Shown here: positions 13,274 to 37,588 of the stretch, piece after piece
Position numbering within the stretch: the stretch's first letter is position 1
How the letters are laid out: each line of letters begins with the position of its first letter
From: Escherichia phage vB_EcoS_MM01
DNA: 43,157 bases
Sequence record: MK373793.1
Reading direction: 5' to 3' (one strand)
Notes under the pieces: generated by a model
Seen by the model: the letters and a program-made list of their open reading frames with translations, nothing else
Databases searched by the model: none
What the model was told of the DNA's origin: nothing
Made by a program: the position numbers and the translations under genes

Positions 13274-13703
13274 AGAAATTGGAAACGTAGTAACTTTCGA
13301 GAAATCTATTGCTGACTGGATTGATAGAGCAGATGATAAGTTTTCTGATGTTGTGTCTGGTACGGTAATTAGGGCAACTAACGCTATTGTTGACCTTTCT
13401 CCTGTTGATACTGGCAGGTTCAAGGCTAACTGGCAGGTAACTGCCAACGCTCCAGCAGCGCAATCACTAAATGATTACGACCAGCTAGGAGGGGAAACCA
13501 AATCGGCACTTGCAAGGCAAGCTAGAGCGGTAGCAAGAAGCAAGGCAACTAAAGTGATCTACATTACCAACAGGCTTGATTATGCTGCTGAGCTTGAGTA
13601 TGGCGCATCAAATCAGGCGCCTTCTGGTGTTTTGGGTGTTGTTCGGGCAAGACTTGGAAGATACTTTGAAGAGTCAGTTGCTGAAGCAAGGAGTAAAAGC
13701 TAA
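13266..13703 (+). CDS. neck / tail-completion protein (putative)
   Basis: ATG at 13266 (internal to track ORF 13227) coupled to upstream stop; position. Confidence 0.45.
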   Translation: MAKEIGNVVTFEKSIADWIDRADDKFSDVVSGTVIRATNAIVDLSPVDTGRFKANWQVTANAPAAQSLNDYDQLGGETKSALARQARAVARSKATKVIYITNRLDYAAELEYGASNQAPSGVLGVVRARLGRYFEESVAEARSKS

Positions 13704-14104
13704 TGCAATATGAATTATCTTTAGCGGCAAGAAAGTTTGTTAACGATATTTTAGTTAATAATATCCCTTTCAGGTATCCAGTTGCATGGGAGAATGTTAA
13801 ATTCACTCCCCCATCCGAAGGCTCAATGTGGATTAAGTATGACTACACTGAGGTTGACTCTGTAACTTACGGACTAAGCAGAAAATGCAAGTATTACGTA
13901 GGAATGGTTCAGTTATCAATCTTCTTCTCACCAGGTACTGGAGTAAACAAGGCTCGGCAACTAGCTAATCAATTGGCAGAATCTATCATTGATGGTACAA
14001 TGCTTGAAATTGGATATGTTTATGAGGGTGGGGTTGTTAACCCGGTAATCAAATCTCAATCAGGCTGGTTCATCCCAGTTAGGTTTTATGTTCGTCTAGA
14101 CTAA
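13703..14104 (+). CDS. tail terminator-like protein (putative)
   Basis: 133 aa directly upstream of major tail protein gene. Confidence 0.4.
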   Translation: MQYELSLAARKFVNDILVNNIPFRYPVAWENVKFTPPSEGSMWIKYDYTEVDSVTYGLSRKCKYYVGMVQLSIFFSPGTGVNKARQLANQLAESIIDGTMLEIGYVYEGGVVNPVIKSQSGWFIPVRFYVRLD

Positions 14105-14113
14105 ATTAACTTA

Positions 14114-14788
14114 TTGAATTGGAGGTGTATTATTGCTCATTTATCAAATGGCACGCAGGTCTTCGTAGAAGGCTCTCGCGGAGCTGTAATTGACGTAACT
14201 GCAATTTCTAACGCAGTTACCCCTGTTTTAACTGTATCTGATGCGTCCGGCCTGGTTGTTGGTGACTATCTTCTGTTTACCGCTTCAGCTTCCACGCTAC
14301 TTGCTGACAAGCAAGTTCGAGTAACGGCAATCACTGGCACTTCAGTAACTGTTGAAGGTATTGATACCTCTAGTACTACAAAGTTCCCAGCTGGTTTAAC
14401 TGGTGAAGTTGTCAAGATTACTTCCTGGTTCGAAGTTCCTTGCGTTCAGGATGTATCTACTGATGGTGGCGAACAGCAATTCGTTAACTTCCAGTGTCTT
14501 TCTGACGACCGTGAACAGCAGATTCCTACTTATAAGTCTGCGGTAACGAATACCTTCACCTTTGCTCATGAGTACACTAACCCGGTTTATCCGGTTCTGC
14601 GTAACTACGATGAGTCAGGTCAGGTTGTTGCGATTCGTCTGTTCGTCCCTCGCGCACAGGAAATGCGTTTACAGTCCGGCACTATCGCTTTCAACGACAC
14701 GCCAACCATTGGCGTTAACGAAATCGAAACCGTATCAATTGCTGTATCCATTCGTGGTCGACTGTCCTCGGTTGCTGCTGAAGTCTAA
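14114..14788 (+). CDS. major tail protein
   Basis: 224 aa before chaperone and tape-measure genes; start uncertain (track TTG 14114; GGAGGTG RBS at 14121-14127 suggests in-frame ATT at 14129/14132). Confidence 0.6.
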   Translation: MNWRCIIAHLSNGTQVFVEGSRGAVIDVTAISNAVTPVLTVSDASGLVVGDYLLFTASASTLLADKQVRVTAITGTSVTVEGIDTSSTTKFPAGLTGEVVKITSWFEVPCVQDVSTDGGEQQFVNFQCLSDDREQQIPTYKSAVTNTFTFAHEYTNPVYPVLRNYDESGQVVAIRLFVPRAQEMRLQSGTIAFNDTPTIGVNEIETVSIAVSIRGRLSSVAAEV

Positions 14789-14792
14789 AAAC

Positions 14793-14816
14793 AAACCCTC
14801 TTCGGAGGGTTTTTTA
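14793..14816 (+). terminator. rho-independent terminator
   Basis: ccctc-ttcg-gaggg hairpin plus T6. Confidence 0.65.
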
Positions 14817-14819
14817 TTG

Positions 14820-14839
14820 CATAGCACTTTTTGCTAAAG
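14820..14839 (+). repeat. junction motif A copy (catagcactttttgctaaag)
   Basis: motif A followed by motif B atcgaaacga at 14871-14880 and ATG 14898. Confidence 0.6.
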
Positions 14840-14897: not shown

Positions 14898-15284
14898 ATG
14901 AAAGTAATCATCGCAATTATGGCAACCCTGTTACTTGCTGGTTGCAACACAGACAAGGTTAAGACACTTAATGTTGATCTGACCTCAAATGAATGCAAGA
15001 ACATCGTATACAGCGCGACTGTTAACAATGAATCATTTACTCGGCTTTCATTCAAGCACCCGGAACTTAAAGAAGCTGTTATGTATGTGTCCCACATTGA
15101 GTGCACGAAATCTGTTAACAATTTTACACGTGGTGTTGTAATTGAACGCACTACAACATTGGCAAAGGTATCAAAGCCTAGTGACGCCTCAATTGAGATG
15201 GTTTATACTAAGCTATACAATTTAGAAGGTTTCGCTAAGGAAGTTGGCGAGAAGCTGGCTTACTCACGCGTTGTTATAAAATAA
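14898..15284 (+). CDS. lipoprotein (moron in tail module)
   Basis: N-terminal signal peptide with lipobox LLAGC; AT-rich; own motif A/B unit upstream. Confidence 0.7.
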   Translation: MKVIIAIMATLLLAGCNTDKVKTLNVDLTSNECKNIVYSATVNNESFTRLSFKHPELKEAVMYVSHIECTKSVNNFTRGVVIERTTTLAKVSKPSDASIEMVYTKLYNLEGFAKEVGEKLAYSRVVIK

Positions 15285-15302: not shown

Positions 15303-15617
15303 ATGGCAAAGTTCAAACTTTCACTGGCAGCACTCCCTGACTTCAAGCTACCAGTAAAATTTAAGCTGGCTAACGACCAGGAAGTAGAAGTTATCTTTAC
15401 TGTCAAGCACAAGAAGACTTCTGAGCTTCAGGAGCTTTTACAGAAAGAAGAATTAAGCACTAAAGAACTAATCACGGCAATCGCATCTGATTGGGACCTT
15501 GAGGAAGAATTTAACGAAGATAACGTAAACGAGTTCGCAGACCTATTCCCTGCCTCAACGGTTGCGCTGACTACCGCTTATATGCAGGCGCTTGCTGGTC
15601 AGCGAGTAAAAAACTAA
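15303..15617 (+). CDS. tail assembly chaperone (lambda gpG-like)
   Basis: 104-aa ORF immediately upstream of tape measure gene; ends in slippery heptamer. Confidence 0.6.
   Translation: MAKFKLSLAALPDFKLPVKFKLANDQEVEVIFTVKHKKTSELQELLQKEELSTKELITAIASDWDLEEEFNEDNVNEFADLFPASTVALTTAYMQALAGQRVKN
15608..15614 (+). promoter_or_regulatory. -1 programmed ribosomal frameshift slippery site A_AAA_AAC
   Basis: heptamer AAAAAAC spans the last two sense codons of the G-like ORF; the -1 frame is open from 15614 into ORF 15626..15937. Confidence 0.55.
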
Positions 15618-15625
15618 AACGAGCG

Positions 15626-15937
15626 GTGTATCTACAGTACCAGTCAGAGCCAACTGATGCCGAACTGGAAGCTATTGGGATGCGCCGCTCTGATTACGAA
15701 GACGAAGAGCCTGAAGTTTTAAACTTCGACGAAAACATGATGAAAGCGTGGGACATTTATTGTTCAATGGCTACGCAGTGGAGAGTTGGAGCTAACGGAG
15801 CTACAGGGCTTGATTACAACGTGCTAAATTTCCTCTTTAGAGTGTATAATGTTTCTGAAGAAGAATTGGTGCTCAGCGATTTACGCATCCTTGAAGCTAA
15901 GGCTCTTGAGATGATGGATAACCTGAGAAAAAAATAA
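15626..15937 (+). CDS. frameshift extension of tail chaperone (gpT-like part of G-T fusion)
   Basis: -1 frame ORF contiguous with slippery site; conserved G/GT architecture upstream of tape measure. Confidence 0.55.
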   Translation: MYLQYQSEPTDAELEAIGMRRSDYEDEEPEVLNFDENMMKAWDIYCSMATQWRVGANGATGLDYNVLNFLFRVYNVSEEELVLSDLRILEAKALEMMDNLRKK

Positions 15938-21873: not shown

Positions 21874-24800
21874 ATGGCTGAAGAGATTAAGATTTATGGC
21901 GCTAAGGGTGGTAGCCAGAAGCAACACCAACCAGTAGAGCAGGAAGACAACCTTATTTCGGTGAACAAGGTTAAGGTATTGCTTGCCGTTGCTGATGGTG
22001 AGGTTGACCCTAATTTCTCCATGAAGGATTTATACCTTGCTGATGTGCCTGTTCAGAACCAGGATAACAGCTACAACTATGAAGGAGTTCGGGCAGAATT
22101 TCGCTCTGGGACTCAGTATCAGGATTACATTGCTGGGCTTGATGGTGCTAACTCAGAGATTCAGGCATCTCGTGAAATCACAAATGATACGCCTTACATC
22201 ATTGCGGTTAATAACAGTCAGCTTTCAGCAATTCGAGTTAAACTATTTTGGCCTCGACTAGTTAAACAGGAAAGCAATGGAGACCTGAATGGTACAACTT
22301 GCGAGTACGCAATTGACTTGTCTGTTAATGGTGGAGCATATCAGGAATACACTCGCGGAGTTGCAAACGGGAAGACAACAACTGGTTACGACCGTAGTAT
22401 CCGTGTAAACCTTCCGGCTGAATTTGATAGCGCGCTAGTTAGAATTCGGAAGATTACGCCTGATTCAACAATTAGCACTCTGGTTAATGGAATGCAGATT
22501 ACAACCTATCAGGAAGTGATTGACGCTAAATTCCGCTATCCGCTTACGGCTCTGGTTTACGTTGAGTTTGGCTCTGACCTGTTCCCTAATGGCATCCCGA
22601 CAATCTCTATCAAGAAGAGATGGAAACTTATTCAGGTTCCAACGAACTATAATCCAGAGACAAGAACTTATAGCGGCACATGGAATGGTCTATTTAAAAT
22701 GGCTTGGTCAAATAACCCTGCGTGGGTTCTTTATGACTTAGTAACAAACCGCCGCTATGGTCTTGACCAGCGAGAGTTGGGTGTAGAGATTGATAAGTGG
22801 GGTCTATACGAAGCCGCGCAATTCTGTGACCAGATGGTGCCGGATGGGAAAGGTGGAATGGAGCCGCGTTACCTGTGCGATATGGTTGTGCAGAATAAAG
22901 TTGAGGCCTACACGCTAATTCGTGATATCTGTTCAATATTCCGTGGCCTGACTTTCTATGATGGCGAAAAGATTGGTATCGTGGTTGATAAACCGCGAAA
23001 CCCGTCTTACATCTTCACTAATGATAACGTTGTAAACGGATTATTCAGCCGCACCTTTGCCAGTGATAAGAGTCTTTACACCACGGCAAACGTTCAGTTT
23101 GATGATGTTGAGAACAACTATCAGCAGGATGTTGAGCCAGTTTTTGAACTCGAGGCTACTCGCCGCTTTGGTTTTAACCCTGTTGATTTAACTGCTATTG
23201 GCTGTACTCGAAGAAGCGAAGCAAACAGGCGCGGTAGGTGGCTTCTAAAAACAAATCTGAGAAGCGAAACTATCAGCTTCACTACCGGACTGGAAGGCAT
23301 GATTCCGATGATTGGCGAGGTTATTGCGGTTAATGACGCAGCATGGTCTAGCAACTATCAATTAAACCTTTCTGGTCGAATCGAATCAGTGCAGGGGTTG
23401 CAGGTTTTTACCCCGTTTAAAGTTGACGCAGCACCTGGTGATAGAATCCTGCTTAACAAGCCTGACGGAAGCCCAGAGGCAAGAACCATTGCCAGCGTTT
23501 CGGAAGATGGTAGAACAATCAACCTTAACACTGCTTTCAGTTTTGTGGCTCAGCCGGATACTGTTTTCGCAATCGATAAGAACAACCTCGCGCTTCAGCA
23601 GTATGTGGTGACCGGGATTCAAAAAGCAGACACTGATGGTCAGGACTCATTTCAATATACGATTACTGCTGTAGAGTACGACCAGAACAAATACGATGAG
23701 ATTGACTACGGCGTTAACATCATTGACCGCCCAACATCAATTGTAGAGCCTGACAGATTATCGCCACCAGAAAACCTGACCGTGTCAAGCTACAGCAAGA
23801 TTGTTCAGGGATTGTCGGTTGAGACAATGGTTATTGGCTGGGATAAGGCGCCATACGCTAAAACATACAATGTTCAGTGGAGAAAAGAGAATGGTAACTG
23901 GATTAACGTACCCAGAACAGCTAGCACAGAAGTTGATATCGAGGGCATTTACGCAGGAATCTATGACGTTAGGGTTCGCAGCGTATCAGATACTGAAAAC
24001 GTGTCTGCATGGTCTGGTATTGTAACAAGAAGCCTTACTGGAAAGATTGGTAAGCCACCAAAGCTGCAGGTTATAACGGCGACTGATGACGAAGTTTTCG
24101 GAATTAGAGTTAAGTGGGGCTTTGCAGATGGTAGTGGCGACACTGCATACACAGAGCTTCAGCAGGTAGAGGACAATGGCGATGGCACATACAATCCAGA
24201 CAATGCAAGTTTACTTACTTTGGTTCCGTATCCTCAATATGAATATTGGCACTCTCCAATACAACCGGGTAAGGTTATTTGGTATAGGGCAAGAATCATA
24301 GACAGAATCGGAAACACTTCTGATTGGACTGATTTTGTTAGAGGTATGAGTACTGACGATGCGCAAAAGATAGCTGAGTACATTAAGGTTGATATAGAGC
24401 AGTCTGAAGGTTTTAAATACCTACAGCAGAATGCAATTGAGAAAAACCAGGACATTCAGAATCAAGCTGAGGCAATTATCGAGAACGCGTTGGCTAATGA
24501 TGGTGATGTTCGAAGAATGACAAAGGAGAATGGCAAACGTAAGGCTGAATATGTTCAGGCGGTTAATCTTATAGCTAATGAAACTGAGGCGCGTGTAGAG
24601 GCTCTCACGCAGCTTAAAGCGCAGATAGATGACGAGGTTGTGGCGTCAATTAGTGAAGTTCAGACAGCGCTAGCCACAGAGACCGAAGCAAGGACTACAG
24701 CTGACACAGCATTATCTGCAAGATTGGGTGATAATGAAGCAGCTCTAAACCAGAAGCTAGACGCTTTCTCTAATGCTACATCAACTGGCGTACAGTACGG

Positions 24801-30690: not shown

Positions 30691-31620
30691 TTAGCTATTC
30701 AATAAATCACTTGCCTTATATATCCGCTTCCTTACCCCTGACTTGAATGAGTGCTCATCATTAGGGATTACCACATCAATATTACGATCATCAGCAACGG
30801 CGAGTAAATCGAGAGAATGACGAGCGCATGCAATACGTAACTTGGAGTCTTTGAGCGCGTAAGCAACCATTTCCATGTTGTAACTGGAGTGGCAAACAAG
30901 TACACAGCGGTTCCCAGTAGCAATGTGAACGCGATAGCCGTCAATGAAATTATCGACAAGATAAGCGTACTCATCATCCTTAAAGGAACCAATAACAGCC
31001 ACAGACTGACGAGTATAATCTTTTGCAGCATAACTAACATCTCCTTCCTCATTGATAAACATTACATTACACATTTCTTCTGATATGCCGTCACTATAAG
31101 CCATAAAGCACGGGGCAGCATGAATTAATTCGCCGGACTTCGTCTTGCCAACATCAAACCCAAACTCGCTATAAATACCCTCGTATGTACTGAGTGGGGT
31201 TAACTCTACTCTTTCTGTCCTTTCCATTATCTCTAAGCATCTTTCATGGTCAATCTGGGCGCCCATTTTGTATGGTGATGTCCTTGATGCTCTTTTGTTT
31301 GCTTTTGCAACAATCTCAACAGGAACCAGATTTAACCAGTCACCAAGCGTATCTATTGTTTCGCTATAACTCATTCCTGAGCACTTCATGACCCAACCAA
31401 CACCAGAATCATTGCCGCACTGGTTGCATATTGCTGCACCGTTGCCTTTTTCCTGACCTAGCTCATCCGTGAATCGAAACCTATCACGACCTCCGCAGTT
31501 TGGGCATGGACCATGCTTCTTGCTAAGATTTTCTCTGGTCCATCCTAAATGAGACAGGTATAACTCACCCCACATCCCTTTCATTTTAGCTATCACTTCA
31601 TTTTTATCATGATGATTCAT
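30691..31620 (-). CDS. DNA primase (zinc-ribbon + TOPRIM-like, putative)
   Basis: CPNCGG...C..C zinc-binding cluster near N-terminus; ATG 31620 with GGAGG RBS inside track ORF. Confidence 0.5.
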   Translation of the reverse strand: MNHHDKNEVIAKMKGMWGELYLSHLGWTRENLSKKHGPCPNCGGRDRFRFTDELGQEKGNGAAICNQCGNDSGVGWVMKCSGMSYSETIDTLGDWLNLVPVEIVAKANKRASRTSPYKMGAQIDHERCLEIMERTERVELTPLSTYEGIYSEFGFDVGKTKSGELIHAAPCFMAYSDGISEEMCNVMFINEEGDVSYAAKDYTRQSVAVIGSFKDDEYAYLVDNFIDGYRVHIATGNRCVLVCHSSYNMEMVAYALKDSKLRIACARHSLDLLAVADDRNIDVVIPNDEHSFKSGVRKRIYKASDLLNS

Positions 31621-31675: not shown

Positions 31676-32182
31676 TCAAATCGTGCTGTTTTGCTCTGAC
31701 TCTCTCTTTTTCTTATTCTCTTCCTTAATCTTGCGCCATGATCTAGCAGGTGGTTTTTTTGCTAAATCCTCCTTCTTAACAACTCTAAGCATTTCTCGAC
31801 GGTCGCAACGCAATGTTAGTGGCTTACCGTTGCTATCAAATCGCAGATCAGGACGAATGAAGCTAGCTCTATATCCTTCGCCTGTACGCTTGTACTTTCC
31901 GTGCAGCTTCTGCGCGCCTTTCGCTGAGATCATTCCGCGCTTACACCACTCAGAAACTACTGCATGAGTCACATTGGCGGCTTTTGCTAGCTTCGATTTA
32001 CCGCCGTAGAAGTTAAGAACTATCTCAAGCCTTGCGCGTAAACTTGCTCGCACTTCATCCTTCAAAGTGTAGTAGCCATAAGGTCGACTACGTTCTTTCT
32101 TATCTTCGCCTCGCTGGGTTCCGTTATTTCCATTTAATGTACGCTTGTCCACTTCACCAGTTGATTCCGCGATTCTCGTCAT
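31676..32182 (-). CDS. HTH DNA-binding protein (Cro/YdaS-like, putative regulator)
   Basis: GGKSKLAKAANVTHAVVSEWCKRGMIS helix-turn-helix-like segment; basic termini. Confidence 0.45.
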   Translation of the reverse strand: MTRIAESTGEVDKRTLNGNNGTQRGEDKKERSRPYGYYTLKDEVRASLRARLEIVLNFYGGKSKLAKAANVTHAVVSEWCKRGMISAKGAQKLHGKYKRTGEGYRASFIRPDLRFDSNGKPLTLRCDRREMLRVVKKEDLAKKPPARSWRKIKEENKKKRESEQNSTI

Positions 32183-32193
32183 TATTAATCTCC

Positions 32194-32213
32194 AATAGCA
32201 CTTTTTGTTAAAA
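32194..32213 (+). repeat. junction motif A copy (aatagcactttttgttaaaa)
   Basis: in divergent intergenic region 12 nt from HTH gene start and about 70 nt upstream of helicase ATG. Confidence 0.6.
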
Positions 32214-32282
32214 GTCGTTTTGATTTAGTGTTAGTATTGTACCCAACAAAACGCTACAACACAAATTAATAGGGCTTAACAA

Positions 32283-37099: not shown

Positions 37100-37588
37100 A
37101 TGAATTGGCATGAATTTTTCATATACGATAATGGAACTTTGTTTTGGAAGGTGAAGCCTTCAAGAAGTGTCTTGGTTGGCAGCGTTGCTGGTGGCTTGCA
37201 CTCCGCTGGATATGTTGACTTAAGGTTAAATAAAAAAGCATACTTGTGCCATAGAATTATTTGGGAGATGCATAACGGGATAATACCAGAAGGTATGGAG
37301 ATTGATCATATAAATCACATTAGGGATGACAACAGAATTGAGAATTTGCGACTTGTGAGCAGGCTAGAAAACCATAGAAACAGATCAAAACCAAAAAACA
37401 ATAAAAGCGGATTTACTGGAGTGAGGCAAACGAATAGTGGTAAGTGGACATCTTACATATGCTTAAGGGATGAAAATAACAAGAGGTATATAAAAACATT
37501 ATATTACGGAGATTCTTTTGATTGCGCTGTATCTGCAAGAGTCGAGGCTGTGAAAGGCTTTGGGTTTCATGATAATCACGGGGAGTAA
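37100..37588 (+). CDS. HNH endonuclease with AP2-like DNA-binding domain
   Basis: IDHINHIRDDNRIENLRLVSRLENHRN plus C-terminal GFTGVRQ...GKWTSYI. Confidence 0.65.
   Translation: MNWHEFFIYDNGTLFWKVKPSRSVLVGSVAGGLHSAGYVDLRLNKKAYLCHRIIWEMHNGIIPEGMEIDHINHIRDDNRIENLRLVSRLENHRNRSKPKNNKSGFTGVRQTNSGKWTSYICLRDENNKRYIKTLYYGDSFDCAVSARVEAVKGFGFHDNHGE

Follow-up and report, generated by a model that had tools for sequence, protein, structure and literature searches.

Where does translation of the major tail protein gene start in Escherichia phage vB_EcoS_MM01? An earlier note on this DNA had pointed out that the strong ribosome-binding site of the gene, GGAGGTG (14121–14127), lies downstream of the only in-frame NTG codon, TTG at 14114, a layout that we confirm in the sequence at all coordinates. 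Here ‘the window’ refers to the whole stretch of DNA analysed, the 43,157 nt of record MK373793.1, and positions are counted from its first letter. The best explanation as a whole, which we hold to be highly probable, would be that translation initiates on AUU at 14132, that the strong ribosome-binding site compensates for this weak codon, and that the arrangement originated from a mobile cassette.

The tail tube gene and its initiation region

The source phage is a T1-like siphophage (Drexlerviridae, Braunvirinae), and the region under study is its tail module. A 1.3-kb query around the site matched 379 phage records, at best with ~82% identity, including Rtp, ACG-M12, 2725-N35 and DTL. The first 20 kb of the window had no match in the phage reference collection above ~85% over most of its length.

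That the gene encodes a major tail protein, as the earlier note had assumed, is borne out by full-length profile matches to Pfam PF08813 Phage_tail_3 (E 4e-68) and phrog_584 (E 5e-86, residues 2–215 on profile positions 3–216, or 214 of 218) and by the PDB homologues 9l0f (E 6e-75) and 9jlf. The gene also has a tail-module position, with PF13554 upstream and PF08748, DUF1799 and a 922-aa tape measure ORF downstream. Its product is of the same sequence family and 218-aa length as T1/Rtp-type tail tube proteins, and the window has the T1/Rtp-type gene order of terminator, tube, chaperones and tape measure. The sole difference from T1/Rtp-type tube genes is the translation initiation region.

In the tail tube frame, the terminator stop codon TAA (14102–14104) is followed by ATT AAC TTA TTG(14114) AAT TGG AGG TGT ATT(14129) ATT(14132) GCT CAT TTA TCA AAT GGC. 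Because this TAA is in frame, it bounds the tail tube ORF on the upstream side. The gene callers’ choice is TTG 14114 (MNWRCIIAHL...), which precedes the ribosome-binding site by 5 nt, and sequence inspection revealed no ribosome-binding site or purine-rich element upstream of it.

When the spacing is measured from GGAGG, ATT 14132 is 6 nt away, but ATT 14129 is only 3 nt away, so the proper spacing that the earlier note had given to both ATTs holds for the second and is too short for the first. Likewise, the GTG and ATG that it had called well placed are out of frame as it said, but the GTG (14125–14127) is within the ribosome-binding site, and the ATG (14148–14150), being 22 nt from GGAGG, is poorly placed. 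Another out-of-frame codon, TTG 14133–14135, is 7 nt from GGAGG, overlaps ATT 14132 by 2 nt and opens an 11-codon ORF that stops with TAG at 14166–14168. This TTG is unavoidable where ATT is followed by GCN, and is a possible competing initiation site.

Table 1 Features of the window around the tail tube start and elsewhere.
Feature	Position	Strand	Description
Tail terminator gene	13703..14104	+	133 aa; Pfam PF13554 Phage_tail_terminator_5, E 2e-18; stop TAA 14102-14104
Variant 27-nt intergenic block ATTAACTTATTGAATTGGAGGTGTATT	14105..14131	+	A/U-rich leader with strong ribosome-binding site; from alignments
TTG	14114..14116	+	only in-frame canonical start (ATG/GTG/TTG) ahead of conserved N-terminus
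Tail tube ORF as called from TTG	14114..14788	+	from ORF list
Invariant 18-nt core TTGGAGGTGTATT ATT GC	14119..14136	+	-13 to +5 from A of ATT 14132; nine lineages
Shine-Dalgarno GGAGGTG	14121..14127	+	7 consecutive base pairs with 16S rRNA 3' end
First in-frame ATT	14129..14131	+	3 nt after GGAGG; invariant, off column of homologues' ATG
Proposed AUU initiation codon, ATT	14132..14134	+	6 nt after GGAGG; homologous to relatives' ATG
Major tail (tube) protein CDS, proposed	14132..14788	+	218 codons and stop
Out-of-frame short ORF	14133..14168	+	TTG CTC ATT TAT CAA ATG GCA CGC AGG TCT TCG TAG
Intrinsic-terminator-like hairpin AAACCCTCTTCGGAGGGTTT and T-run	14793..14820	+	hairpin 14793-14812; directly 3' of tail tube stop codon
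Lipoprotein-like ORF	14898-15284	+	128 aa; signal MKVIIAIMATLLLAGC; weak LPAM_1 match; between tail tube and chaperone genes
Tail assembly chaperone-type ORFs, two adjacent	15303-15617, 15626-15937	+	PF08748; DUF1799; 8 nt apart
Primase-like gene	CDS 31620..30691; ribosome-binding site and ATG 31634-31618	-	Zn_Ribbon_Prim, E 9e-15
Second free-standing HNH_3 endonuclease gene	37100-37588	+	162 aa; phrog_99, E 1e-57

Two other kinds of element were considered for the initiation region and rejected. A promoter inside the 27-nt block (TTAACT-16-TATTAT, 14106–14133, 9/12) has a −35 part that is unconserved among lineages, its transcript would start 3′ of the start codon, and as many hits are expected from shuffled sequence. 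A structured RNA element finds no support either, as folding of the region is less stable than that of shuffled sequence (z = +1.7) and Rfam gave only a sub-threshold rsmX match on the downstream terminator. This match (14734–14815, + strand; 24.8 bits, gathering score 56), which overlaps with the terminator hairpin, was judged to be chance. Incidentally, a promoter-like TTGGCA-17-TACAAT with an extended −10 TG (10/12; 13973–14001, + strand) lies within the tail terminator gene, ~130 nt ahead of the tail tube start, and such sites in the region are as many as the shuffled expectation.

Downstream of the tail tube gene, the lipoprotein-like ORF has no PHROG match, and could have a surface or exclusion function. 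Relatives have at this place another ORF (82 aa, or the 129-aa rtp34) or, in the metagenomic lineages L045 and L048, none, which makes it a variable slot. The arrangement of the two chaperone-type ORFs that follow is not that of an overlapping frameshift pair.

Comparison of ATT and ATG alleles

Initiation on AUU, a rare event that the earlier note had suggested alongside an unusual start mechanism, is well supported by comparison, as far as sequence can speak for it. In Rtp, 2725-N35 and SU57, the alignment pairs the annotated ATG GCT CAT TTA TCA AAC GGC codon by codon with ATT GCT CAT TTA TCA AAT GGC. ATT 14132 is also in the ATG column of six more relatives from IMG/VR, three Logan contigs and Shigella phage Sd1 of another subfamily, which together with the former three are the 13 ATG-type loci. 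In these 13, the alignment with ATT 14132 is base for base, and the ATG-started product begins MAHLSNG.... Where the homologues start, the window has no canonical codon, but AUU instead.

A start at TTG 14114 would yield 224 aa, with the six-residue extension MNWRCI before IAHLSNG..., and GGAGGTG would then be coding (W-R-C). Initiation would take place without a ribosome-binding site, or as re-initiation after TAA 14102, 9 nt upstream. However, the extension is missing from all ATG-type homologues, the PHROG profile and the solved structures; the solved T1-type tube proteins begin M-H-L-P-N-G (9l0f, 9jlf). Because the 218 positions of phrog_584 and the solved homologues start at the position of ATT 14132, there is no room for the extension.

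The ATT allele was found in nine lineages, namely the window, DTL (by exact-pattern scan), RobRod40, phiEB49 of the Rogunavirinae, and five metagenomic lineages (L045, L046/47, L048, L050 and L052). A protein search yielded five protein clusters with called N-termini M[N/I]WRCIIAHLSNG, whose contigs all bear TGGAGGTGTATT ATT GC. All nine lineages have GGAGGTGTATT-ATT-GC in common, and the longest invariant run in the alignment anchored on the start codon is an 18-nt core, TTGGAGGTGTATTATTGC in the window, which takes in exactly the ribosome-binding site with its spacer, the ATT, and the Ala codon up to its second base. Its flanks are variable, with changes in 17 of 20 columns at −40 to −21 and in 25 of 29 third-codon positions over codons 2–30. 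The tail tube gene itself diverges by 11–24% within the Braunvirinae ATT lineages, and more for phiEB49. ATT is invariant (9/9), whereas the upstream TTG is missing in two lineages. Part of the core invariance could come from a constraint other than translation, such as protection from an endonuclease.

When metagenomes were scanned for the motif, 30 loci were hit, all chance matches without similarity to the tail tube region; the bacterial genome scan gave no match. In the literature, we found no report that recognised an ATT start in phages or, specifically, in DTL or phiEB49, and no proteomic or ribosome-profiling data on DTL, phiEB49 or RobRod40.

How does TTG 14114 fare among the nine lineages? 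An equivalent is present in seven of them, 18 nt upstream of the ATT, and TTG as the only in-frame NTG is called by Prodigal and Pharokka (RobRod40 annotation; P0001, P0002, P0003, P0008 and P0011). Its distance from the stop codon is short, and re-initiation has been documented in E. coli (PMC3592434, PMC2268962). On the other hand, the codon is TTT in DTL, where the frame reads, from the stop on, ATT AAC TCA TTT ATT TGG AGG TGT ATT ATT, and phiEB49 has CTT GTT ACT TGG AGG TGT ATT ATT, so neither has an in-frame NTG between the upstream stop and the ATT. DTL, phiEB49 and RobRod40 are cultured phages, and the former two, which lack the TTG, propagate; phiEB49 is a standard transducing phage for strain CFT073 and is routinely propagated. 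The next in-frame NTG 3′ of the ATT comes 88 codons on in DTL and 19 in phiEB49, and a start there would lose as many conserved residues, in DTL part of the Pfam domain.

Even among the lineages bearing the TTG, the next codon is either AAT or ATT, with variation also at positions −18 and −16, while the ribosome-binding site and the ATT, both downstream, are invariant. If they were coding, AGG and TGT would be without any synonymous change, against the variable third positions further downstream. Moreover, judging from virion stoichiometry, coupling to the low-copy terminator or HNH gene would hardly supply hundreds of copies. The upstream TTG thus looks dispensable, and we consider it improbable as the start that accounts for the gene, although in the window it may be a minor or alternative one. 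Such a start predicts an N-terminal NWR plus CIIAHLSNGTQVFVEGSR.

Public annotations of the tail tube gene are inconsistent as a result of the ATT start. The protein is cut to 130 aa in DTL (GenBank MG050172 / NC_047893, ORF 40, 22080–22472), whose paper gives a length of 393 nt for ORF 40 without comment, and in phiEB49 to 184 aa (JF770475, gp44, 31718–32272). In RobRod40 (OR896835, CDS0015), it has six extra residues from the TTG, as do the metagenomic gene calls listed above.

A single base, G to T, separates ATT 14132 from the relatives’ ATG, so that a sequencing error in a true ATG gene, or a mutation making the gene a defective one, has to be weighed. However, nine independent sequences, of isolates as well as metagenomes, have the same base, always with the different upstream block, which rejects an error. 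The tail tube ORF is intact and under purifying selection, its differences from relatives being mostly synonymous, which argues against a pseudogene. The chance of either is next to nil.

Strength of the ribosome-binding site and competing codons

IF3 normally discriminates against AUU, and the other genes known to start with it are expressed at a low level, whereas each virion requires hundreds of copies of the tail tube protein. At the 13 ATG-type loci, the spacer is short (CAAAAGGAAAAATAC or similar) and its ribosome-binding site weak in every case. This ancestral spacer CAAAAGGAAAAATAC of 15 nt is replaced in the window by the 27-nt block with GGAGGTG. The duplex with the 16S 3′ end is −13.2 kcal/mol for GGAGGTG versus −5.6 kcal/mol for the ancestral AAGGA spacer, a gain of 7.6 kcal/mol. 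With 0.45 mol/kcal, the usual scaling of the Salis model, the gain amounts to roughly 30-fold.

Published strengths of AUU initiation range from 1–2% of AUG (bioRxiv 10.1101/063800) to ~12–25%, i.e. 4–8-fold below AUG (PMC3592434), and A/U-rich leaders raise AUU initiation ~3-fold (PMC3592434). With these strengths, a site ~30-fold stronger and an A/U-rich leader, it is credible that the output is comparable to that of the ancestral weak site with ATG. The strong ribosome-binding site plausibly offsets the weak start codon. The weak folding of the initiation region (z = +1.7) also speaks for a start here.

The same module serves an ordinary start elsewhere in the window. The primase ATG is preceded by TGGAGGTGTAT, an 11-nt ribosome-binding-site module identical to that of the tail tube gene, with a GGAGG-ATG spacing of 5 nt, close to the 6 nt before ATT 14132. 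This bears on a start at ATT 14129, alone or along with ATT 14132, which would give M-I-A-H-L.... ATT 14129 is likewise in frame and shares the invariance of ATT 14132, but follows GGAGG by only 3 nt and GGAGGTG by 1 nt, where the primase uses 5 nt, and it is out of register with the homologues’ ATG. With spacing too short, ATT 14129 is the less likely of the two, and we regard a start there as very unlikely.

UUG 14133, at an equally good spacing, is a stronger start codon than AUU (bioRxiv 10.1101/063800). Going by published codon strengths, this canonical codon should out-compete AUU, producing an 11-residue peptide, and the tail tube protein could then be made if ribosomes starting at UUG 14133, or at ATG 14148, shifted into the tail tube ORF. 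However, inspection of 14133–14168 revealed no X XXY YYZ slippery heptamer or +1 motif, the peptide and length of the short ORF are unconserved in phiEB49, and the ATG-type relatives need no such mechanism. Without slippery site and conservation, frameshifting was rejected as scarcely credible.

In the proposed course of initiation on AUU 14132, the 30S subunit would bind the 7-nt perfect GGAGGUG in the A/U-rich, weakly structured leader, which would place fMet-tRNA on AUU 14132–14134, 6 nt downstream of GGAGG. AUU would presumably be decoded by the initiator tRNA, and a ribosome-binding site ~7.6 kcal/mol above the ancestral AAGGA-plus-AUG arrangement would make up for the weak codon. The product would be MAHLSNGTQV... 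of 218 aa, with the N-terminal peptide AHLSNGTQVFVEGSR after removal of Met before Ala.

The two confirmed AUU-initiated chromosomal genes of E. coli are infC, which encodes IF3, and pcnB (bioRxiv 10.1101/063800; PMC3592434). The tail tube gene resembles them in having an AUU start with an upstream Shine-Dalgarno sequence near the stop codon of the upstream cistron. In infC and pcnB, however, AUU limits or autoregulates low-abundance proteins, while the tail tube protein is an abundant virion protein. Its AUU is paired with a 7-nt perfect site that appears compensating, no IF3 feedback logic is evident, and the codon would have arrived in a mobile cassette rather than evolved in place. Enterococcus faecalis ebpA likewise encodes a structural, polymer-associated protein with an ATT start, for which annotation took a downstream canonical codon, but its host is Gram-positive, its ATT attenuates expression, and it has no mobile-element link (PMC4447247).

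An HNH endonuclease gene and the origin of the ATT allele

Five of the nine ATT lineages (RobRod40, phiEB49, L045, L046/47 and L052) have an orthologous HNH_3 ORF of 160–169 aa between the terminator and tube genes. These orthologues are ~70% identical, and the ORF ends 10–16 nt before the ribosome-binding site. The ORF is absent from the terminator-tube junction in the window, DTL, L048 and L050, and from all 13 ATG loci (5/9 versus 0/13; Fisher p ~0.005, uncorrected for phylogeny). At the same intergenic site, the ORF is thus optional among relatives. The lineages with and without it are intermixed in the tail tube tree, a crude neighbour-joining tree, and the cassette is present in two subfamilies, Braunvirinae and Rogunavirinae. 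Within the phage reference collection, this HNH lineage (>60% identity) is found only in RobRod40 and phiEB49, paralogues of ~42% identity being at other sites.

The HNH stop codon in L046 is the TAA of TAAATTAACTTATTGAATTGGAGG, and the window has the same string after the terminator stop. This identity makes it look as if the window had lost the endonuclease gene by a precise deletion, or as if its allele had been converted without ever being occupied; in both cases, the window looks like a cassette carrier without the endonuclease gene. Because the HNH proteins are only ~70% identical and the spacer upstream of the ribosome-binding site is variable, the invariant block is old and constrained, not merely recent. 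Incidentally, the second HNH gene in the window (37100–37588) is ~40% identical to the HNH that precedes the tail tube gene in relatives, and the gene downstream of it has an ordinary AAGGA and ATG.

Where does the ATT allele end on the tail tube side? Polymorphisms 3′ of the start codon are common to ATT and ATG alleles, RobRod40 being identical to IME253 over 19 codons except for the start codon, and the two alleles are intermixed in the tail tube gene tree, again by crude neighbour-joining. This places the boundary of the allele at the third base of the start codon. Upstream of it the two alleles share no homology, so recombination is unable to separate the strong ribosome-binding site from ATT, which leaves a T-to-G point mutation as the only way to part them. 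An intermediate allele with the strong ribosome-binding site and ATG was found neither with a start-codon-free pattern nor among the 13 ATG-type loci.

The tail tube genes of phiEB49 (L057) and Sd1 (L058) are 92.6% identical over the matched part. Synonymous differences are ~17% in the first 60 nt, the first ~25 codons being dense with them. Such differences after the start would fit a conversion tract, or a change of target site beside the HNH insertion.

We propose that the ATT allele forms the right end of a mobile cassette, whose other part would be the free-standing HNH gene between terminator and tube genes, carried by five of the nine lineages. The cassette boundary would be the third base of the start codon, turning ATG into ATT. 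In the window, the endonuclease gene would have been deleted, or else the converted allele was never occupied.

This resembles T4 seg and mob and the I-HmuI-type HNH genes of SPO1/SP82, which are also optional ORFs between two conserved genes (PMC2988022, PMC2790892). As with those free-standing homing genes, the distribution is patchy, here over two subfamilies, the flanking sequence travels along, and carriers without the endonuclease gene keep the flanking allele. The tail-tube HNH lineage differs in that its endonuclease activity, target site and homing are putative, its protein being presumably an active homing enzyme. To our knowledge, and within a limited literature search, no case is described in which a flank transferred along with an endonuclease gene takes the place of the ribosome-binding site and start codon of an essential neighbour.

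More tentatively, the ATT start could be the immunity mark of a selfish element, a possibility that we rate as well short of probable. The HNH enzyme would then recognise the ancestral initiation region including its ATG, and homing would have spread the cassette through T1-like phages of at least two subfamilies. On the way, an uncuttable version would have replaced the ribosome-binding site as well as the last base of the start codon, and the consensus Shine-Dalgarno sequence supplied along with it would keep up the output of tail tube protein. Selection for endonuclease avoidance, for dosage or for both would retain the ATT after endonuclease loss, as in the window. If so, a mobile endonuclease would have forced an essential, abundant virion gene onto a non-canonical start.

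Initiation on AUU driven by a Shine-Dalgarno sequence is a known mechanism; what appears to be new is a conserved case on an abundant virion protein with a mobile-element origin. For structural and proteomic studies of T1-like tails, it is important to have the right start of the tail tube gene. A conserved AUU on a highly expressed phage gene, if true, would be a natural test of how a Shine-Dalgarno sequence rescues a codon discriminated by IF3, and the overlap of AUU and UUG at the tail tube start would be a test of codon choice by the ribosome. From the link with the HNH cassette, it would seem that essential genes can have their translation signals rewritten by mobile endonucleases next to them.
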